Of a DNA stretch of 19,882 nucleotides, positions 1 through 7,567 are shown piece by piece. Source of the DNA: a virus; the UHGV virus genome UHGV-0342044; one strand, 5' to 3'. Under the pieces are notes generated by a model. That model was not told the origin of the DNA. It was given only the letters and a program-made list of their open reading frames with translations, and did no database searches. Within the stretch, counting starts at the first letter, position 1. Each line of letters opens with the position of its first letter. The translations under genes and the position numbers were made by a program.

Positions 1-482
1 TTCGTAATGACCTGGCGGATGCCTTACCGGAAAGTGCAGCCTGTAAGGCACTGAGATTACCGAAGCCTGTTGTGCCGTCTGTCACCCGGGAAAGTGACCT
101 TGTTCCTTCGGTTCCTGCCACCAGCATCATCCAGGATAAAGTGAAAAAGGTGCTGGCGCTGAAAGTGGATCCGGAGTCGCCGGAGTCTTTTATGTTACGC
201 CCAAAACGTCGCCGCTGGGTTAATGAAAAGTACACGCGCTGGGTTAAGACACAGCCGTGTGCATGTTGTGGTAAGCCTGCTGATGATCCCCACCACCTGA
301 TAGGTCACGGTCAGGGTGGAATGGGTACAAAAGCGCATGACCTCTTTGTGTTGCCTTTGTGCAGAAAGCATCACGACGAGCTGCATGCGGATACCGTGGC
401 ATTTGAAGAGAAGTATGGCTCCCAGCTGGAGCTGATATTTCGTTTTATCGATCGTGCGCTGGCAATTGGCGTGCTGGCCTGA
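1..482 (+). CDS. DUF968 family protein (YdfU-like), 5'-truncated by window edge
   Basis: Reading frame is open from the window start (frame 3) to TGA at 480-482. C-terminal Cys/His cluster (CACCGKP...[12 protein letters not shown]...[11 protein letters not shown]) resembles prophage DUF968 proteins that sit immediately upstream of Q in Qin-type prophages. The true start lies upstream of the window. Confidence 0.6.
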
Positions 483-499
483 TTTTGTGGAGAAAGTTG

Positions 500-865
500 A
501 TGCGTGATATTCAAATGGTTCTTGAACGTTGGGGGGCATGGGTGGCAAATAATCACGAGGATGTCACCTGGTCGTCTATTGCTGCAGGATTTAAAGGACT
601 AATCCCTTCAAAAGTAAAATCCCGCCCGCAATGTTGTGACGATGACGCGATGATCATTTGTGGGTGCATGGCTCGCCTGAAAAAGAACAACAGCGATTTG
701 CACGATTTATTAGTGGATTATTATGTAGGTGGTATGACGTTTATGGCGCTTGCCCGTAAACATGGGCGTTCTGATTGCTGGGTTGGGCGTTTATTGCAAA
801 AGGCTGAAGGTGTAGTTGATGGCATGTTAATGATGTTAGAAATTGAGCTAGAGATGGATCGTTAG
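500..865 (+). CDS. late-gene antitermination protein Q (short QuuD / phage-82-like type)
   Basis: ATG at 500 preceded by GGAG at 489-492; the ORF track begins at a TTG at 485. Protein [14 protein letters not shown]...[18 protein letters not shown] matches from memory the short Q antiterminators of E. coli cryptic prophages. Position just before the lysis region fits. Confidence 0.75.
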
Positions 866-906
866 AAGACCTCTTATTGAGGGGGTAATTGAATCAGTTT
901 AATGTG

Positions 907-938
907 TGGGGAGTCGATTTATTCTCCCCATTTTATTT
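907..938 (+). terminator. putative rho-independent terminator downstream of Q (tR'-like)
   Basis: Inverted repeat TGGGGAG (907-913) / CTCCCCA (924-930) with a 10-nt loop, followed by TTTTATTT (931-938) on the + strand. Confidence 0.45.
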
Positions 939-949
939 AATTAATTTAC

Positions 950-1396
950 TTAAGGTTTTAATTCATCAAGACGTTGTTGGATAGTGTTTTTGCTTGCGTT
1001 GTCTGTTATAGCCATTTGTTGTACTTGCCCCATTGCCATTTGAGTTTCCATCCACATATCGGCCCACACTTTTGTATCGTTATTAACTTGAGCGATAGTA
1101 AATCTGACTTTTGATACCGGGGTTGTTGAATAGGCATTGCCGATTAACATTTGTCCAAAAACAGCAGAGCCGCCTTCCAGTTCTTTACCACATATAACAC
1201 TGCTGTTATCCGCGTTGTAAATTATCAACCCTCTACTATTGCAGTAATTCACAAGGGCATCTTTGACTTTATCTTTTGTCATATTTTGATAAACCCCCTC
1301 AGGTTTTCCTGATTGAGTTTTCTTTATCAATGGTACGGAAGAAGTACAACCTGAAATGATAGTTGCGCTAAGTAATAGTACAGTCATTTTATTCAT
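950..1396 (-). CDS. putative lipoprotein (accessory moron, unknown function)
   Basis: 148-aa ORF on the minus strand with an N-terminal signal peptide and lipobox (MNKMTVLLLSATIISGC). Strongly AT-rich relative to the flanking phage genes. It is the only convincing minus-strand gene in the window. Confidence 0.7.
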   Translation of the reverse strand: MNKMTVLLLSATIISGCTSSVPLIKKTQSGKPEGVYQNMTKDKVKDALVNYCNSRGLIIYNADNSSVICGKELEGGSAVFGQMLIGNAYSTTPVSKVRFTIAQVNNDTKVWADMWMETQMAMGQVQQMAITDNASKNTIQQRLDELKP

Positions 1397-1526
1397 GTTT
1401 CTTATCCATTGTTAAGGGCATACCCACACAATTATTTTTATTGGAGATGAATAATCAACCGTTTACAATCGTAAAAAATCAAATATGCTGTTAAGAGTGG
1501 TTACTTCGCCACACAACTTAAACCCG

Positions 1527-1544
1527 CCGCTGAGCGGTTTTTTT
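1527..1544 (+). terminator. putative rho-independent terminator
   Basis: Short GC stem CCGC (1527-1530) / GCGG (1534-1537) with loop TGA, followed by a run of seven T (1538-1544) on the + strand. Confidence 0.4.
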
Positions 1545-1666
1545 GTACCTGTAAACTTGGTGCAGTACAGTAAACACGCTGGTGGTCGTGAATACTGACT
1601 TTTTATCTTGCTGGCTTTTTAGACAAGAGTTATTGGTATGTCATGTTAACCAGAAGGGGAAAAGAC

Positions 1667-1870
1667 ATGCTAAAACAGCAAGATATGACAGAAACCGCCG
1701 CCGCAGTCCTTCATTTCTTACCTGCTGACAAGTGGGTAACGCCACGCATGATGACGAGAACTGCCGGAGTAAGCGAAGCCCGGTGCCAGTTAATACTGAC
1801 CCAGTTAGTTCTGGCGGGTCTGGCGAAGGATAACGGCGGGTACGGGAATAAATTCAGACGCTGCCAGTAA
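1667..1870 (+). CDS. small hypothetical protein, possible winged-helix DNA-binding protein
   Basis: ATG at 1667 preceded by AAGGGGA (1654-1660). 67-aa product MLKQQDMTETAAAVLHFLPADKWVTPRMMTRTAGVSEARCQLILTQLVLAGLAKDNGGYGNKFRRCQ has a helix-turn-wing-like pattern. The ORF track gives a longer version from 1643. Function is inferred only. Confidence 0.5.
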   Translation: MLKQQDMTETAAAVLHFLPADKWVTPRMMTRTAGVSEARCQLILTQLVLAGLAKDNGGYGNKFRRCQ

Positions 1871-1897
1871 TGGCGGTTTCCTGCTGTGAAAATGGGC

Positions 1898-2020
1898 GGC
1901 TGGTGGGTGTTGGTAGCACCTACCAGCCATTCGCTCATGCTTACTGGTCACAAGCGAACCACGGCCCACTGCTTTAGCGCAAAAGCAGAGTGAGCCTACC
2001 AGAGTTACGCTTACTGATCC
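1898..2020 (+). promoter_or_regulatory. repeat- and hairpin-rich leader upstream of the methyltransferase gene
   Basis: Direct repeats CCTACCAG at 1919-1926 and 1995-2002; GCTTACTG(G/A)TC at 1939-1949 and 2009-2019. Hairpin TGGTAG-CAC-CTACCA at 1911-1925 and hairpin CTGCTTT-AGCGCA-AAAGCAG at 1969-1988. No Shine-Dalgarno sequence before the ATG at 2021. Confidence 0.3.
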
Positions 2021-3073
2021 ATGAAAAATACTGTAAAAATAAACAGTGTTGATTTAATCAACGCTGATTGCCTGCATTTTATTCAGTCCCTGCCTGATGA
2101 TTCCATTGACCTGATTGTTACCGATCCGCCGTACTTCAAGGTGAAACCCAACGGCTGGGACAATCAGTGGAAAGGGGACGAAGATTACCTTAAGTGGCTG
2201 GACCACTGTCTGGCCCAGTTCTGGCGGGTGTTAAAACCTGCCGGAAGCCTTTACCTGTTCTGTGGGCATCGCCTGGCATCTGATATTGAGATCATGATGC
2301 GTGAACGTTTCAACGTGCTTAACCATATCATCTGGGCGAAGCCGTCCGGACGTTGGAATGGGTGTAATAAAGAAAGTCTGCGCGCATATTTTCCTGCCAC
2401 AGAGCGCGTTCTGTTTGCTGAACATTACCAGGGGCCATATCGTGGCAAAAGTGATGGCTATGCGGCAAAAGAAAGGGAACTCAAACAGCACATAATGGCA
2501 CCGCTGATATCGTATTTCAGGGATGCTCGTGCCGAACTGGGTATAACGGCAAAACAAATTGCCGAAGCCACAGGTAAGAAAAATATGGTTTCCCACTGGT
2601 TTGGTGCCAGTCAGTGGCAGTTGCCGAATGAGGCTGACTATCGGAAGTTACAGGCACTGTTTTCCCGTATAGCGGCAGAGAAGTTTCAGGAACAACAACT
2701 GGAACAACCACACCACCAGCTGGTGGCATCTTATGATTCACTGAATCGCAAATATTCTGAATTGCTGGATGAGTTTAAATCTCTCCGGCGCTATTTCTCC
2801 GTATCAGTCTCCGTGCCTTATACCGATGTCTGGACGCATAAGCCCGTTCAGTTCTACCCGGGTAAACATCCGTGCGAGAAACCGGCGGATATGCTCCGGC
2901 AAATAATCAATGCCAGTAGTCGCCCTGGTGATCTGGTTGCTGATTTCTTTATGGGATCCGGTTCCACAATAAAAGCAGCAATGGCGCTGGGGCGTCGGGC
3001 GTTAGGTGTTGAACTTGAGTCAGAGCGGTTTAATCAGACGGTGAAAGAGGTAAGTGAACTGGTGGGGAAATAA
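2021..3073 (+). CDS. DNA methyltransferase, beta-class (N6-adenine or N4-cytosine)
   Basis: 350-aa ORF with catalytic DPPY motif near the N-terminus (IVTDPPYF) and the AdoMet-binding FxGxG motif near the C-terminus (DFFMGSGST). This circularly permuted order is typical of beta-class amino-methyltransferases. A central insertion carries an HTH-like segment (ITAKQIAEATGKKNMVSHWF). Confidence 0.85.
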   Translation: MKNTVKINSVDLINADCLHFIQSLPDDSIDLIVTDPPYFKVKPNGWDNQWKGDEDYLKWLDHCLAQFWRVLKPAGSLYLFCGHRLASDIEIMMRERFNVLNHIIWAKPSGRWNGCNKESLRAYFPATERVLFAEHYQGPYRGKSDGYAAKERELKQHIMAPLISYFRDARAELGITAKQIAEATGKKNMVSHWFGASQWQLPNEADYRKLQALFSRIAAEKFQEQQLEQPHHQLVASYDSLNRKYSELLDEFKSLRRYFSVSVSVPYTDVWTHKPVQFYPGKHPCEKPADMLRQIINASSRPGDLVADFFMGSGSTIKAAMALGRRALGVELESERFNQTVKEVSELVGK

Positions 3074-3149
3074 TTCTGGTGGCCACGTTGCGTGGCCTTT
3101 TTATTTCCAACACAGCACCCGCAAATATCGCGAGGTGAGAGATGACGAA

Positions 3150-3485
3150 ATGCCTCATAACCCAAATACCTGGCCGGACTGGCTGGAGTTGTTTCAGAGC
3201 TGGTGGCGTGGAGACACGCCGCTGGGTGCAGTGATTATGTCGATCGTTATGGCTGGTTTGCGCATCGCCTATTTTGGCGGTGGTGGTGGCTGGAAGCGAA
3301 AAACGCTCGAGATTTTGCTCTGTGGCGCTCTGACGCTGACCTTTGCATCCGCTCTTGAGTATGTCGGATGGCCTAAATCACTTTCTGTTGCCATTGGTGG
3401 CGGCGTGGGGCTGATCGGTGTCGATGCTATTCGTGGGGCTGCAATGCGAGTAATCGGTAACAAGTTTGGTGGCTCTAAGGAGTAA
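3150..3485 (+). CDS. S: holin, class I (lambda S-like)
   Basis: ATG at 3150 preceded by GAGGTGAG (3132-3139). 111-aa product begins MPHN (lambda S105 begins MPEK) and has three predicted transmembrane segments and a charged C-terminus (IRGAAMRVIGNKFGGSKE). It lies immediately upstream of the endolysin. The ORF track's longer version from 3054 overlaps the methyltransferase and is probably artefactual. Confidence 0.75.
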   Translation: MPHNPNTWPDWLELFQSWWRGDTPLGAVIMSIVMAGLRIAYFGGGGGWKRKTLEILLCGALTLTFASALEYVGWPKSLSVAIGGGVGLIGVDAIRGAAMRVIGNKFGGSKE

Positions 3486-3488
3486 TTT

Positions 3489-3965
3489 ATGCAGGTACTA
3501 AATTCCCAGCGTAAAGCTTTCCTCGATATGTTGGCGTGGTCAGAAGGAACGGATAACGGGCGACAGCCAACCCGCAATCACGGCTACGACGTTATTGTAG
3601 GTGGTGAGTTATTCACGGATTACTCCGATCATCCTCGCAAACTTGTCACGCTAAACCCCAAACTCAAATCAACAGCCGCCGGACGTTACCAGCTTCTTTC
3701 ACGCTGGTGGGATGCTTACCGTAAACAGCTTGGCCTGAAAGATTTTTCTCCAGAAAGCCAGGACGCTGTAGCTCTGCAGCAGATTAAAGAGCGTGGCGCT
3801 TTACCGATGATTGATCGCGGTGATATTCGTCAGGCTATCGACCGTTGCAGCAATATCTGGGCTTCACTACCGGGCGCTGGTTATGGTCAGTTCGAGCATA
3901 AAGTTGACAGCCTGATTGCAAAATTCAAAGAAGCAGGCGGAACGGTCAGAGAGATTGAGGTATGA
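3489..3965 (+). CDS. R: endolysin, lambda R-type lytic transglycosylase
   Basis: 158-aa product is near-identical from memory to lambda R ([20 protein letters not shown]...[23 protein letters not shown]...) including the catalytic Glu in AWSEGTD. AAGGAG Shine-Dalgarno at 3476-3481. Confidence 0.95.
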
Positions 3966-4399
3966 GCAGAGTAACCGCGATTATCTCCGCTCTGGTTATT
4001 TGTATCATCGCCTGCCTGTCATGGGCTGTTAATCATTACCGTGATAACGCCATCGCCTACAAAGAACAGCGCGATAAGGCCGCATCCATTATCGCTGACA
4101 TGCAGAAACGTCAACGTAATGTAGCTGAACTCGATGCCAGATATACAAAGGAGCTTGCTGATGCTAACGCGACTATCGAAAGTCTCCGTGCTGATGTTTC
4201 TGCTGGGCGTAAGCGCCTGCAAGTCGCCGCCACCTGTGCAAAGTCAACGACCGGAGCCAGCGGCATGGGCGATGGAGAAAGCCCAAGACTTACAGCAGAT
4301 GCTGAACTCAATTATTACCGTCTCCGAAGTGGAATCGACAGGATAACCGCGCAGGTTAACTACCTGCAGGAGTACATCAGGACGCAATGTCTGAATTAA
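3962..4399 (+). CDS. Rz: i-spanin Rz
   Basis: Start overlaps the R stop (ATGA). N-terminal transmembrane segment [31 protein letters not shown] is near-identical to lambda Rz, followed by a coiled-coil periplasmic domain. Confidence 0.9.
4161..4346 (+). CDS. Rz1: o-spanin Rz1 (lipoprotein), embedded in the +1 frame of Rz
   Basis: ATG at 4161 preceded by AAGGAG (4148-4153). Product has a signal peptide with lipobox (LLGVSAC) followed by a Pro-rich segment ([13 protein letters not shown]), the hallmark of Rz1. It lies entirely within Rz in another frame, as in lambda. Confidence 0.8.
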
Positions 4400-4402
4400 C
4401 AG

Positions 4403-4428
4403 AGCCAGCTTAATTGCTGGCTTTTTTG
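4403..4428 (+). terminator. rho-independent terminator after the lysis cassette
   Basis: AGCCAGC (4403-4409) / GCTGGCT (4416-4422) stem with loop TTAATT, followed by TTTTTT (4423-4428), directly after the Rz stop. Confidence 0.6.
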
Positions 4429-4749
4429 TTTCCGGGGCCAATCAATTAAGCACACAGTATCGTGACACAATCATGCGTCGCATCGTCGCCGTATTCCCGT
4501 ATTAACAGAGACCGTAGCCCGACGGGGAACTCCTTCTGCGCGAGTATGCGGGAATAATCAAAAACGATGCACACCGGGTTTTTACCGCGTTTATGGTTCG
4601 CGGGTTTGTCCCTCATGCTCGCCAGTCCTGTGCGGGGGTGGAAGAAACAGGACACTTACACAGATTCTTGTGGGCACGATGCTATGTCTTTCTGGATTAT
4701 CTCGATGCCATTCATGCAAGGCGCTGTATCAGACGTTCGTCAGAGCTGT

Positions 4750-4810
4750 CAGGCTGACGGGTCCTCCCTGTGGGGTGGCCTGCCACGGGGCGGGAGCGTC
4801 GCGGAAAAAG
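4750..4810. other. cos site (cosQ-cosN region), lambda-like
   Basis: The sequence GACGGGTCCT...CCACG-GGGCGGGAGCGT-CGCGG aligns from memory with the lambda right-end / cosN / left-end junction (ACGGGTCCTTTCCGGTGATCCGACAGGTTACG-GGGCGGCGACCT-CGCGGG). It sits about 175 bp upstream of the small terminase gene. Confidence 0.6.
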
Positions 4811-4884
4811 GCTAGTTTTTGCATTTTTATCGGCCACCATCATCTTTGCATCTTATTGATTATTAATGGTTATTTGTTTTTTGT

Positions 4885-4951
4885 ATGTCGAATTGAGTGT
4901 TTTTTGTTCGACATCGAACGCGTTTTCTTAAAGTTGTTCGCACGATGCATG
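4885..4951. repeat. cosB-like region with TCGA-core inverted repeats (candidate small-terminase binding sites)
   Basis: ATGTCGAA (4885-4892) and its reverse complement TTCGACAT (4907-4914); imperfect palindrome GTTCGA-CA-TCGAAC (4906-4919); a related GTTCGCACG at 4936-4944. All lie between the predicted cosN and the small terminase start. Confidence 0.35.
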
Positions 4952-4973
4952 TTTAAAGCTCTCCGGAGGAAAT

Positions 4974-5465
4974 ATGGATCATGAGTTGAAAAACCTGGTG
5001 CTGAATATTAATCAACTGGCGGCTTTATCTGGTCTGCACCGCCAGACTGTCGTGGCAAGACTGAAAAACATTCGTCCCGCTGGTGGACATGACAAACTCA
5101 AGCTATACCGGTTGACCGATATTCTGACTGAATTTATGGGGTTACCACCGCCGGTTGCTGAGGGCGAAATGGATCCACATGAACGCAAAGCCTGGTATCA
5201 GTCTGAACGTGAGCGTCTTAAGTTCGAACAGGAAACGGCACAACTCATTCCGGCCAGTGATGTCAGACGGGAGTTTGCCATCTGGGCAAAAGCGGTCGTG
5301 CAGGTGCTGGAGACATTACCGGATATTCTGGAACGTGACTGCGGCCTGCAGCCTGCCGCTGTGAGCCGTGTTCAGTCCATTATTGATGATCTGCGCGATC
5401 AGATAGCCCTGCGGGTGACCGAAGCAGGTGCGGATGATGAGGAGGAATTACAGCAGGAGGAGTAA
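4974..5465 (+). CDS. terminase small subunit (Nu1-like, N-terminal HTH)
   Basis: GGAGGA Shine-Dalgarno at 4965-4970. 163-aa product has an N-terminal HTH-like segment (LNINQLAALSGLHRQTVVARLKN) and an acidic C-terminus. Stop overlaps the large terminase start (TAATG), and it lies immediately downstream of cos. Confidence 0.75.
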   Translation: MDHELKNLVLNINQLAALSGLHRQTVVARLKNIRPAGGHDKLKLYRLTDILTEFMGLPPPVAEGEMDPHERKAWYQSERERLKFEQETAQLIPASDVRREFAIWAKAVVQVLETLPDILERDCGLQPAAVSRVQSIIDDLRDQIALRVTEAGADDEEELQQEE

Positions 5466-7567
5466 TGCTGAATCAGGAAACCGCAAAGGCAGCACGAACC
5501 GATTCAGGTTATATCCTTCGCGCACCGAGACGAATGCTGGTTGCTGATGCCGTTGCTCAGTATATGCGGGTGCCCATGGGGGCCGGGAACTCAGTCCCGT
5601 GGGATCCGCTGGTGGCACCGTATGTTATTGAGCCGATGAACTGCCTGGCCTCGCGTGAATACGACGCAGTGATATTTGTTGGCCCGGCACGAACTGGCAA
5701 GACTATCGGCCTGATTGACGGCTGGGTGATTTACAACGTGATTTGCGATCCTGCGGATATGTTGATCATTCAGATGACGGAGGAAAAAGCCCGCGAACAC
5801 TCCAAAAAACGACTTGCCAGAACGTTTCGCGTCAGCCCGGAAGTGGTCAGTCGCCTGAGTCCGAACAAAAATGACAACAACGTTTATGACAGAACATTCC
5901 TTGCTGGCAACTACCTGAAAATCGGCTGGCCGTCAGTCAATATCATGTCCTCATCAGATTATAAATGCGTGGCGCTGACGGATTATGACCGTTTTCCGGA
6001 AGATATTGATGGCGAGGGGGATGCCTTCTCTCTTGCCTCAAAACGTACCACCACATTTATGTCCAGTGGTATGACGCTGGTGGAGAGTTCCCCCGGCAGG
6101 GATGTGAAGGATGTGAAATGGCGACGGACTTCACCGCATGAGGCTCCACCAACCACGGGGATACTGTCGCTCTATAACCGTGGCGATCGCCGTCGCTGGT
6201 ACTGGCCCTGTCCACACTGTGGTGAGTATTTTCAGCCCTGCGGCGATGTGGTTGCTGGTTTCCGTGATATTGCCGATCCCGTGCTGGCAAGTGAGGCGGC
6301 TTATATTCAGTGTCCTTCCTGTTCAGGACGGATTATGCCTGAACAAAAACGTGAGCTGAACGGACGTGGGGTCTGGTTGCGGGATGGTGAATCCATCAAT
6401 GCGGATGGCAGTCGTTATGGTGATCCCCGACGCTCACGTATTGCGTCATTCTGGATGGAGGGTCCGGCAGCTGCTTACCAGACACTCTCGCAACTCGTTT
6501 ACAAACTGCTTACTGCAGAACAGGAATACGAGACAACCGGAAGTGAAGAAACACTCAAGACGGTTATCAATACCGACTGGGGATTACCTTATCTTCCCCG
6601 TGCCAGCATGGAGCAACGAAAAAGTGAACTGCTTGAACAGCGGGCAGAGCCAGTTCCTTCCCGCAGTGTGCCGGATGGCGTTAATTTCCTGGTGGCGACA
6701 GTTGATGTGCAGGCGGGACGTCATCGCCGTTTTGTGGTTCAGGTAACGGGCTATGGCAGCCGTGGCGAACGCTGGATTATTGATCGTTACAACATCACGC
6801 AGTCATTGCGCGGTGACAGCGACGGGGAGAGCCAGCGAATTGATCCGGCCAGCTATCCGGAAGACTGGGATGTCCTGCTGACGGATGTTTTTCATAAAAG
6901 CTGGCCGCTGGCCTCCGATCCTTCTCAACAAATGCGACTGATGGCAATGGCGGTGGACTCCGGCGGTGAAGACGGGGTCACTGATAATGCCTATAAATTC
7001 TGGCGTCGTTGCCGTCGTGATGGCCTTGGTAAACGTATTTACCTGTTTAAGGGCGACAGCATCCGGCGCGCAAAACTGATCACCCGTACATTCCCTGATA
7101 ACACCGGACGAACGGGCCGACGGGCGCAGGCCGCAGGTGATGTGCCGCTCTGGCTTCTTCAGACGGATGCCCTGAAAGACCGGGTGAATAACGCGTTATG
7201 GCGTGACTCTCCAGGTCCCGGCTATGTGCATTTCCCTGACTGGCTGGGGAGCTGGTTTTACGACGAACTGACGTATGAAGAGCGGAGTAGTGACGGGAAA
7301 TGGAGTAAGCCGGGTCGCGGTGCCAACGAAGCTTTTGACCTGATGGTGTATGCCGAGGCTCTGGTCATTCTGCATGGATACGAAAAGATCCGCTGGCCGG
7401 ATGCACCGGAGTGGGCGAGCCGGGAAACCTGGCTGGAGTGTGTCCCGGACAGTACCGAACCGTCACCCTCACCGGAACCGGTATCCACGCCTGTTAAAAA
7501 ACAAAAACGGAAGAAAACAGTAACTGACGATGTTAACCCCTGGCTGACTTCCGGAGGATGGTTATGA
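5465..7567 (+). CDS. terminase large subunit (GpA family)
   Basis: 700-aa product with Walker A motif (VGPARTGKT) and the CPHCGE zinc-ribbon-like motif (WYWPCPHCGEYF) also present in lambda gpA. Translationally coupled to the small subunit. Confidence 0.9.
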   Translation: MLNQETAKAARTDSGYILRAPRRMLVADAVAQYMRVPMGAGNSVPWDPLVAPYVIEPMNCLASREYDAVIFVGPARTGKTIGLIDGWVIYNVICDPADMLIIQMTEEKAREHSKKRLARTFRVSPEVVSRLSPNKNDNNVYDRTFLAGNYLKIGWPSVNIMSSSDYKCVALTDYDRFPEDIDGEGDAFSLASKRTTTFMSSGMTLVESSPGRDVKDVKWRRTSPHEAPPTTGILSLYNRGDRRRWYWPCPHCGEYFQPCGDVVAGFRDIADPVLASEAAYIQCPSCSGRIMPEQKRELNGRGVWLRDGESINADGSRYGDPRRSRIASFWMEGPAAAYQTLSQLVYKLLTAEQEYETTGSEETLKTVINTDWGLPYLPRASMEQRKSELLEQRAEPVPSRSVPDGVNFLVATVDVQAGRHRRFVVQVTGYGSRGERWIIDRYNITQSLRGDSDGESQRIDPASYPEDWDVLLTDVFHKSWPLASDPSQQMRLMAMAVDSGGEDGVTDNAYKFWRRCRRDGLGKRIYLFKGDSIRRAKLITRTFPDNTGRTGRRAQAAGDVPLWLLQTDALKDRVNNALWRDSPGPGYVHFPDWLGSWFYDELTYEERSSDGKWSKPGRGANEAFDLMVYAEALVILHGYEKIRWPDAPEWASRETWLECVPDSTEPSPSPEPVSTPVKKQKRKKTVTDDVNPWLTSGGWL

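Follow-up and report, generated by a model that had tools for sequence, protein, structure and literature searches.

The leader of the DNA methyltransferase (MTase) gene in UHGV virus genome UHGV-0342044, of which we analyzed a stretch of 19,882 nucleotides (nt; hereafter, the window), is a structured RNA element of around 130 nt that is also found at the head of the late operon in other lambdoid phages and in N15-like, Vibrio, and Aeromonas phages. Comparison with homologous sequences establishes the element, the strand on which it acts, its distribution, a conserved fold (fold A), and a set of conserved complementarities that compete with this fold. The interpretation that we favor, with a probability of roughly 60%, is that the leader is a bistable RNA that would control the translation of a toxic, late MTase gene. 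The first-pass annotation of this region had proposed either an operator pair for a DNA-binding protein or an RNA structure controlling MTase translation. The second proposal stands as far as the leader covaries, ends at the start codon, and has alternative pairings near the AUG, whereas translational control itself is what these features suggest; the first does not stand, as discussed below.

Distant blastn searches revealed that the gap ahead of the MTase gene is conserved together with this gene beyond E. coli, in Citrobacter phage phiNP, in Klebsiella, Hafnia, Morganella, and Providencia phages, in phiP27, and in Stx2a (Shiga toxin 2a) phages. A six-way alignment, which includes phages of four genera and extends from E. 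coli to Morganella/Providencia, contains an invariant block of 21 nt (AATGGGCGGCTGGTGGGTGTT), and an exact 18-mer is present in at least 120 IMG/VR contigs. Given that single-base indels flank the AATGGGCGGCTGGTGGGTGTT block and break every reading frame, coding can be ruled out. We used 27 non-redundant copies from IMG/VR (alignment A2) as the basis of a covariance model, R1, with which the window scores 178.7 bits (169.6 bits with a second model, R2). More distant relatives were found by tblastn with the MTase and then searched with R1, and matches with E values from 3e-26 to 2e-4 were obtained in N15, PY54, phiKO2, KpLi5, YDC107_1, Serratia OS31, Hafnia yong2, Vibrio yong3, VHML, Aeromonas phiARM81ld, and PhAER-2, despite the wholly different sequences of P2 and other hairpins in these phages (for the names of the helices, see Table 1). 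In most of them, the element lies just upstream of the MTase gene; in Vibrio yong3 and the Aeromonas phages, it is followed by a small open reading frame (ORF) encoding a zinc ribbon and then by the MTase gene. R1 found no element in the P2-like phage phiO18P, in which the MTase gene lies between the holin and lysin genes.

In a sample of 80 Enterobacterales species-level loci that encode the MTase, the full element was found in 60 loci and a shortened version, with P2 kept and around 55 nt missing, in 16 (Xenorhabdus/Photorhabdus); two loci presented no element, and in the other two, the contig was cut at the gene. With R2, the element was detected in 58 of 80 divergent viral loci, and in both 80-locus samples, the covariance-model matches upstream of the MTase gene were always on the MTase strand. 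In E. coli, 2636 of 5426 complete genomes contain the leader, with up to eight copies each.

Fold A consists of a three-way junction (P1a/P2/P3) followed by the hairpins P4 and P5. The predicted fold of the plus strand (-66.3 kcal/mol) has a z-score of -3.89, and none of 200 shuffled sequences was as stable; for the minus strand, the z-score is -2.44. We examined fold A on an alignment of 82 sequences (A5) and on a more divergent one of 60 distinct sequences (A7), both of which were fitted to this fold, so the following support for it is inflated. On A5, pairing is kept in 86.4% of cells, and both sides have changed in 31 of the 36 pairs, with a covariation score of 0.278 compared with 0.113 in shuffles (0 of 500 reached the observed score) and at most 0.082 in slid controls; for the helices that are unique to fold A, the score is 0.235 compared with 0.115. 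Thus, the covariation check suggested by the first-pass annotation had a positive outcome, as the helices are conserved through compensatory changes.

The individual helices show the same pattern to different extents. On A7, P1a is paired in all 60 distinct sequences, with both-sided changes in four of its five pairs; S1, its 5' strand, is invariant in Enterobacterales, and compensation is seen in Mixta (AUGAGC with GGCUCAC), in the viral contig L282 (UGGGG with CCCCA), and in Aeromonas (GUGGC with GCCAC). Across homologs, both-sided changes were found in 11 of the 12 pairs of P2, which keeps its pairing in N15, PY54, Serratia, Vibrio, and Aeromonas despite a completely changed sequence, in all six pairs of P3 (one of them occurring as C-G, A-U, and U-A), and in all seven pairs of P4, whose sequence is GCGAUGCGCAUCGC in N15, GCUCUGCAGAGC in Vibrio, and GCUUUGCAAAGC in Aeromonas. 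For P5 on A5, 85% of cells are paired, and four of six pairs change on both sides. Numerous pairs appear as G-U in some sequences and G-C in others, or as U-A and U-G, and since such exchanges work only on the plus strand, the element acts as a plus strand RNA.

Table 1. Positions in the window of the leader, its predicted helices and strands, and the genes around it.
Feature	Position	Strand	Remarks
Q antiterminator	485-865		PF06530
Lipoprotein-like gene, probable moron	950-1396	-	148 aa; between Q and the presumed late promoter
Small ORF	1667-1870	+	67 aa from ATG 1667; upstream ATG 1643 also open
P0 hairpin (GCUGCCA-GUAA-UGGCGGU, then UUU)	1860-1879	+	Predicted fold; spans the small-ORF stop; terminator-like boundary 5' of the element
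Whole leader element	1885-2023	+	Structured RNA of ~130 nt; from the 5' flank UGUGA through the AUG
S1 (AUGGGC), switching strand	1892-1897	+	Pairs with S1'' (P1a) or S1' (P1b)
P1a	1893-1897 with 1964-1968	+	Closes the three-way junction
P1b	1892-1897 with 1933-1938	+	S1 with S1' (GCUCAU), inside P3
P2 hairpin, 12-14 bp	1898-1928 (1898-1909 with 1917-1928)	+	5' arm holds an exact Chi site, GCTGGTGG, at 1899-1906 (+)
P3 hairpin (UUCGCU/AGCGAA plus apical pairs)	1930-1958 (1930-1935 with 1953-1958)	+	
S1' (GCUCAU)	1933-1938	+	In the 5' arm of P3
Px long-range helix	1946-1950 with 2015-2019; 1952-1955 with 2009-2012	+	GGUCACAAGC (1946-1955) with GCUUACUGAUC (2009-2019)
P4ext	1963-1969 with 1990-1996	+	GGCCCAC with GUGAGCC; stacks under P4; competes with P1a and P5
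S1'' (GCCCA)	1964-1968	+	3' strand of P1a; preceded by an A-rich junction (1959-1963)
P4 hairpin (CUGCUUU-AGCGCA-AAAGCAG)	1969-1988 (1969-1975 with 1982-1988)	+	
P5 hairpin (AGUGAGC/GCUUACU)	1989-2015 (1990-1995 with 2009-2014)	+	Conserved loop motif CCUAYCA; uses the strand ahead of the AUG
UGAUCC, then AUG of the MTase gene	2015-2023	+	Complementary to the 16S rRNA 3' tail GGAUCA
DNA methyltransferase (MTase) gene	2021-3073	+	350 aa; beta-class, DPPY ... FxGxG order
8-bp hairpin inside the coding region	2027-2046	+	AAUACUGU-AAAA-AUAAACAGUGUU region, core ACUGU/ACAGU; in every constrained fold

The partners of a second fold (fold B), which is probable but less strongly supported, P1b, Px, and P4ext, were proposed by RNAalifold on A2, and they are mutually exclusive with P3, P1a, and P5. 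If the six strands involved are numbered in order, fold A pairs 1:4, 2:3, and 5:6, and fold B pairs 1:2, 3:6, and 4:5. The helices found only in fold B were counted on the alignment fitted to fold A; 90.6% of their cells are paired, compared with at most 45% when they are slid (with similar values on A7), and double changes occur in 43 cells compared with 9.2 expected, a number that none of 500 shuffles reached. Px, which would mask bases up to 1 nt ahead of the AUG, has 84 to 90% of its cells paired on an alignment that was not fitted to it, and four of its pairs show both-sided changes. The clearest signals of fold B are the outer pair of P4ext, which is G-C in 58 sequences, A-U in 9, and G-U in 7, from several clades (G-C in 39 and A-U in 12 in the divergent set), and S1 of Aeromonas, which is changed to CGUGGC together with both of its partner sites, changed to GCCACG. 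With constrained folding of the window, the predicted energies are -75.0 kcal/mol for fold A, -76.1 for fold B, and -76.5 for the minimum free energy structure. Among homologs, the minimum free energy predictions flip between both folds; 31 sequences are more stable as fold A and 49 as fold B.

Regarding the start codon, we agree with the first-pass annotation that no GGAGG-type Shine-Dalgarno sequence is present ahead of the MTase ATG. The best pairing with the 3' tail of 16S rRNA, which we take to be GGAUCA, is that of UGAUCC (2015-2020), in an unusual, shifted register; its duplex of -7.4 kcal/mol is comparable in energy to the Shine-Dalgarno duplexes of neighboring genes, and 64 of 79 homologs retain GATC(Y)ATG. 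UGAUCC may therefore serve as a shifted ribosome-binding contact. The predicted and partly covarying helices Px and P5 cover bases up to 1 to 6 nt ahead of the AUG, and the predicted coding-region hairpin begins 6 nt past it, so the start codon would be left single-stranded in a short interval flanked by two structures. The core of this last hairpin is kept in the lambdoid, PY54, and phiKO2 copies with no compensatory changes, and this conservation is inseparable from that of the codons. A scan for terminators, which found sites at 1526-1538 and 3081-3097, found none within 1880-2020. That the element ends at the AUG and has no internal terminator points to control of translation. An intrinsic-terminator attenuator was discarded because there is no terminator inside the leader; P0, whose tail is UUU, is outside the element, on the upstream side.

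With these elements, the following mechanism can be proposed. The leader would be transcribed within the late, Q-antiterminated transcript as the structured 5' end of the MTase mRNA. In fold A, S1 and S1'' would close the junction with P2 and P3, P4 and P5 would follow, and the GAUCC ahead of the AUG would be free. In fold B, the pairing of S1 with S1' would break P3, the freed 3' half of P3 would form Px, up to base 2019, and S1'' would pair with the 5' strand of P5 as P4ext. The RNA would switch between folds A and B, and the partition between them would set the frequency at which ribosomes start on the MTase gene. Because S1' is transcribed before S1'', fold B, which presumably forms in vivo, would be the first to form; fold A would be the likelier one to be translated, as it leaves GAUCC free and holds the strand ahead of the AUG only in the short P5, but that this is the fold that permits initiation is a guess. 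Candidate triggers could be a ligand or protein that stabilizes the junction, nuclease processing of a rod-like fold, or the folding kinetics of Q-modified transcription.

Several observations weigh against this mechanism, in addition to the inflated support for fold A. Among the pairs found only in fold B, 8 of 21 show any double change, a number reached by 18 of 500 shuffles, and most double changes in Px come from a single clade (Morganella/Providencia). The support for P1b is mainly one-sided, wobble-compatible change, as S1 rarely varies. In the divergent set, only 63 to 78% of Px and 64% of P5 is paired, and thus the part that contacts the start site differs between lineages. The energy gap of around 1 kcal/mol between both folds is within the error of the nearest-neighbor model. 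A third pairing, between the 5' flank UGUGA and UCACA (1948-1952), is also compatible with the sequences, although it barely covaries, and the ensemble may exceed two states. Finally, Xenorhabdus and Photorhabdus manage with a shortened leader, and the element is wholly missing at two MTase loci.

The identity of the controlled gene gives some context to this proposal. The MTase (PF01555, E = 1.3e-42) is 81% identical to that of phage 1720a-02, which has been named as the carrier of an MTase very similar to M.EcoGII, an enzyme that methylates adenine regardless of context, is silent in the lysogen, and proves harmful to cells under constitutive expression (PMC5778455). Judging from its sequence, the MTase of the window is a relative of this non-specific, host-toxic adenine MTase. 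In Mu-like prophages, com-like translational regulators have been described ahead of non-specific adenine MTases (PMC3299994), and in Aeromonas and Vibrio phages, we found that the element and the MTase gene are separated by a zinc-ribbon ORF, of the Com family or another; that of phiARM81ld (Aeromonas) scores above the Pfam threshold for the Mu Com family (PF10122, 27.9 bits, with a cut-off of 22.9). Given that three arrangements were observed (element-MTase, element-Com-like ORF-MTase, and Com-like ORF-MTase without the element), the leader fits as one of several devices that keep the MTase off until late. Com-like zinc-ribbon ORFs were seen directly upstream of relatives of the MTase gene, or overlapping them, in several loci (L274, 1380-1544; L281, 1332-1502; L293, 1317-1538; and L223, L240, L128, L135, and L140), some of which present the RNA element further upstream and others do not.

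Among the alternatives, the one that survives best is that the P1a/P2/P3 junction core, with P4, is the aptamer of a new riboswitch or RNA sensor for S-adenosylmethionine, S-adenosylhomocysteine, or a host or phage factor, gating MTase translation; we regard it as unlikely. In divergent lineages, the core (S1, P2, P3, the A-rich junction, S1'', and P4) is conserved, with P1a perfectly kept, whereas the start-proximal P5 and Px differ, which, at the level of sequence, is what would be expected of a sensor or junction whose expression platform varies. In addition, P4ext provides a second, covarying partner for the 3' strand of P1a, and folds A and B are predicted to be nearly isoenergetic. Nevertheless, no known riboswitch family in Rfam matches, even at E <= 10: there was no match at the gathering thresholds of Rfam 15 over the whole window, and when 1400-2100 was searched at E <= 10, the leader overlapped only noise on the minus strand (P26, 16 bits compared with a threshold of 36; Streptomyces-metK, 12.9 compared with 44.2). 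Moreover, the sequence does not allow a ligand to be inferred, the junctions span only a few nucleotides (0-1, 1-3, and 5-7 nt), and both the sequence and the length of P2 can vary freely. P1b competes through a strand that belongs to P3, an unusual feature for a riboswitch, and the genes under control are not metabolic. An origin as a tRNA or tRNA remnant can be set aside, as ARAGORN found no tRNA or tmRNA gene in the window.

It is also conceivable, though less probable, that the element is mainly a signal for RNA processing or stability, in which a rod formed by the 5' flank, P1b, and P2 (around 23 bp, interrupted), or by P4ext and P4, would be cut by RNase III or another nuclease, separating the MTase/lysis mRNA from upstream moron transcripts and shaping its 5' end. 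RNase III-processed phage leaders, such as the lambda N leader and T7 R1.1, look similar to this rod, and lambda cIII offers a related case, with two mRNA conformers in equilibrium, of which one is translatable, and modulation by RNase III. The sequences are consistent with the rod, P0b being 92 to 97% paired and P1b 95%, and the element always follows a terminator or a moron boundary. However, in the window, folds A and B are both more stable than the rod by around 5 kcal/mol, P0b is almost without compensatory change, and processing alone leaves the conservation of the three-way junction (P1a and P3) unexplained.

A much more doubtful alternative concerns the DNA rather than the RNA, namely that the conserved core was selected as a Chi hotspot that protects the cos-proximal end from RecBCD, with the hairpin being incidental. 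There are 10 exact Chi sites in the window, compared with around 1 expected and at most 5 in 200 shuffles (118-, 1578+, 1899+, 2713-, 2719+, 3199+, 3703+, 5079+, 5608+, and 6076+). All of them are located within 118-6083, the 6 kb that surround the presumed cos region, with eight sharing the plus strand orientation. The Chi site of the leader is one of five plus strand sites to the left of cos, which, given the polarity of Chi, presumably face the direction of RecBCD entry at the chromosome's right end. This site lies within the 21-nt block that is invariant in the six aligned phages, and Enterobacteriaceae copies all share the same 5' arm of P2, with the 3' arm of this hairpin drifting through transitions. 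In contrast, only 49 of 79 copies keep Chi, and it is lost where P2 differs (in Hafnia, GCTGGGTT, and in Serratia, N15, PY54, Vibrio, and Aeromonas), with the hairpin and the rest of the element persisting. Chi cannot account for P1a, P3, P4, and P5 either, and we regard it as an additional constraint, specific to certain lineages, that acts on one of the two arms of P2.

The repeats and hairpins that originally drew attention to this region can be reconsidered in the light of fold A. Both direct repeat pairs exist as annotated, CCTACCAG at 1919-1926 and 1995-2002, and GCTTACTGGTC at 1939-1949 with GCTTACTGATC at 2009-2019, and so does the hairpin at 1969-1988, with arms CTGCTTTAGC and GCAAAAGCAG. 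It was likewise correct that the second repeat copy ends 1 nt ahead of ATG 2021 and that the gap from the stop of the small ORF (1870) to this ATG measures 150 nt. The other annotated hairpin (1911-1925, TGGTAG-CAC-CTACCA) does exist, but merely as a sub-register of the larger 1898-1909/1917-1928 hairpin, whose 12-nt arms are 92% complementary and which is favored by folding and kept in homologs. By themselves, the repeats are only mildly unusual: in 2000 shuffles of 1871-2020, an exact 8-mer repeat appeared in 9%, an 11-mer repeat with at most one mismatch in 4%, and both in 2%. Of 79 full-length homologs, the only one with the identical 8-mer pair is the window itself, and the same is true for the 11-mer pair (at most one mismatch); the 8-mer did not occur twice in any of 119 IMG/VR copies. 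The repeats are, in fact, by-products of the structure. CCTACCAG is the 3' arm of P2 and resembles the conserved loop motif of P5, while GCTTACTGATC is the strand ahead of the AUG that pairs alternately with two partners, its upstream copy lying in the variable apex of P3. Two further tertiary or long-range contacts were considered and rejected: a loop-loop kissing interaction of P2 (UGGUAG) with P5 (CUACCA), which is perfect in the window and, on inspection, is not kept in homologs, and a contact in which the U run of the terminator would pair with the A-rich loop of P5, which is possible only in the N15 and PY54 types.

Because the repeat pairs are unique to the window, being missing from 78 of the 79 full-length homologs, the proposal that they are DNA operators through which the winged-helix product of the small ORF regulates MTase transcription fails and is close to refuted, even though the repeats exist in the window, the small ORF is winged-helix-like and a frequent neighbor (52 of 80 loci), and a homolog, gp51, lies near the same module in N15-like phages; what is conserved is helices with compensatory and G-U changes on one strand, a scan found no promoter-like site between the repeats and the ATG, and transcription would come from the Q-antiterminated late promoter upstream. 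The distribution of the small ORF leads to the same conclusion. No homolog was detected by tblastn (E <= 1e-3) in 24 of the 60 loci with the full element, in which other genes and a terminator precede it, and in 16 loci the small ORF accompanies only the shortened element. The element thus follows the MTase rather than the upstream small ORF, which was discarded as an obligatory partner.

The small ORF (phrog_331, E = 2.4e-25) encodes a probable winged-helix protein, judging from a weak match to TrmB (E = 0.094 for the protein of the window and 0.0026 for its phiP27 homolog) and from its relationship with N15 gp51 (35% identity over 48 aa to the phiNP homolog; loci L129, 1006-1233, and L133, 1003-1230). 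A Pfam search found no match to Com, and a search of solved structures returned nothing meaningful. The N15 and phiKO2 gp51 proteins, which are annotated as winged helix and appear to be homologous to the lambdoid small ORF, are encoded upstream of the late promoter in N15-like phages, not downstream. In Photorhabdus and Xenorhabdus (loci L195-L220), where the small ORF is always present, the shortened leader lies around 100 nt upstream of the MTase start; an S1-like segment and P2 are kept, sometimes with Chi, and P3, S1'', and P4 (the ~55 nt) are missing. In three other loci (L024, 1252-2300 in reverse orientation; L062; and L222, 2681-3726, from E. coli O104:H4), the element is cut right after P2, and a gene for a 237-aa AraC/helix-turn-helix-type regulator takes the place of the MTase gene, followed by tRNA genes. 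These loci mark a recombination junction at the 3' edge of P2.

Other reading frames around the leader were also considered. Within the gap, ORFs 1870-1977 and 1886-1993 were considered as genes for small peptides and rejected, as the indels of the homologs break all frames; the second is in frame with the MTase gene but is cut off by the TGA codons at 1991 and 2015, and one phage record annotates ORFs similar to 1887-1994. An N-terminal extension of the MTase was also rejected, since ATG 2021 aligns with residue 1 in all homologs. In public records, the MTase start appears to be misplaced around the leader. For instance, the start of N15 gene 52 is annotated at 1735, while tblastn places residue 1 at position 1501 of the locus (L129), so the annotated start is 234 nt too late, and the annotated start of the KpLi5 MTase (L134), at 1363, is inside the leader, with residue 1 placed by tblastn at locus position 1501.

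The window represents the late region of a lambdoid prophage, with holin, lysozyme, Rz, and terminase genes downstream of the MTase gene. Many E. coli chromosomes contain the module at 95 to 99% identity, as do the mEp460, cdtI, SfV, Ayreon, and Stx2c phages. Two sites from a terminator and promoter scan would correspond to pR' and tR': one resembling a promoter at 1462-1489 and, downstream of it, a hairpin resembling a terminator at 1526-1538. The lipoprotein-like gene, with a promoter-like site of its own at 1386-1415 on the minus strand, is probably a moron. A sub-threshold match to the small RNA STnc130 at 1512-1648 on the minus strand (26 bits compared with a gathering score of 55, E = 0.13), antisense to the region from the presumed tR' to the small ORF, is probably noise from a shared terminator. 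Past the MTase gene, 8 nt after its stop codon, there is a strong terminator-like hairpin at 3081-3097 (GGCCACGTTGCGTGGCC followed by a T run), which lies within the 5' part of an overlapping 143-aa ORF (3054-3485) of membrane or holin type by appearance.

Upstream, the constant neighbor of the element is a hairpin, usually with a U run. At the position of P0, homologs present hairpins of other sequence (CCUCC/GGAGG, CCUUC/GAAGG, or CCUCGC/GCGGGG) and then a U run; a hairpin with a T run was scored upstream of the element in 35 of 60 loci, and in N15 and phiKO2, the annotated late terminator is at this position.

The leader also reveals a gap in annotation, as the element is present in around half of the complete E. 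coli genomes, often in several prophages each, including Stx-converting ones, while being unannotated and outside Rfam. In the literature searched, we found neither this leader sequence nor a described leader of M.EcoGII-type or N15-type MTases; the small RNAs of Tree et al. 2014 are located elsewhere, 3' of moron genes, and do not correspond to the leader. M.EcoGII is widely used as a tool for non-specific N6-methyladenine labeling, and the leader offers a possible mechanism for its silence in the lysogen and its late, limited expression. Moreover, the conserved helices and their rival partners provide exact positions, which makes the question of how temperate phages hold a genome-wide methylase off until lysis a testable one. 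Should the junction bind a ligand, it would represent a new class of phage-borne sensor, found in lambdoid, N15-like, Vibrio, and Aeromonas phages.

Among known systems, one of those closest to the biological situation is Mu com-mom, in which the zinc-ribbon activator Com opens an mRNA hairpin that masks the mom start. Both would entail late, post-transcriptional control of a host-toxic DNA modification through the mRNA structure at the start site, and the Aeromonas and Vibrio relatives contain a Com-family or zinc-ribbon ORF between the element and the MTase gene. In contrast to Mu, however, the window has no Com gene, and since the element lies upstream of com where both occur, it is not the target of Com. 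In a search of Mu 34000-36717 with R1 and the filters off, the best match (8.7 bits, E = 0.15) was not at com-mom, which indicates that the leaders are unrelated. The small helix-turn-helix ORF beside a DNA MTase gene, together with the short repeats nearby in the window, also recalls the C-protein operators of restriction-modification systems. Nevertheless, the repeats of the window are direct rather than palindromic C-boxes, they lie downstream of the small ORF, they are not conserved, and the conserved signal in the leader is an RNA structure.

The leader also resembles lambda cIII, another lambdoid mRNA whose start region adopts two competing folds of similar stability, with translation set by their balance, as is predicted here for folds A and B. 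The two have no sequence relationship, though, and cIII is an early gene whose switch spans the start codon and the early coding region, whereas the MTase leader has an upstream domain of 130 nt with a three-way junction. With three-way-junction riboswitches, it shares a junction closed by P1, a 3' strand of P1 with an alternative partner, a variable region adjacent to the ribosome-binding site, and two exclusive folds; in fact, a conserved domain with a mutually exclusive pairing of the putative expression platform is predicted from the alignments. It differs from them in having no match in Rfam, a competing helix that draws on a strand inside P3, and a phage DNA MTase as the controlled gene. 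The element is a new RNA family of a known general kind, which belongs to none of the Mu com-mom, lambda cIII, and three-way-junction riboswitch families.

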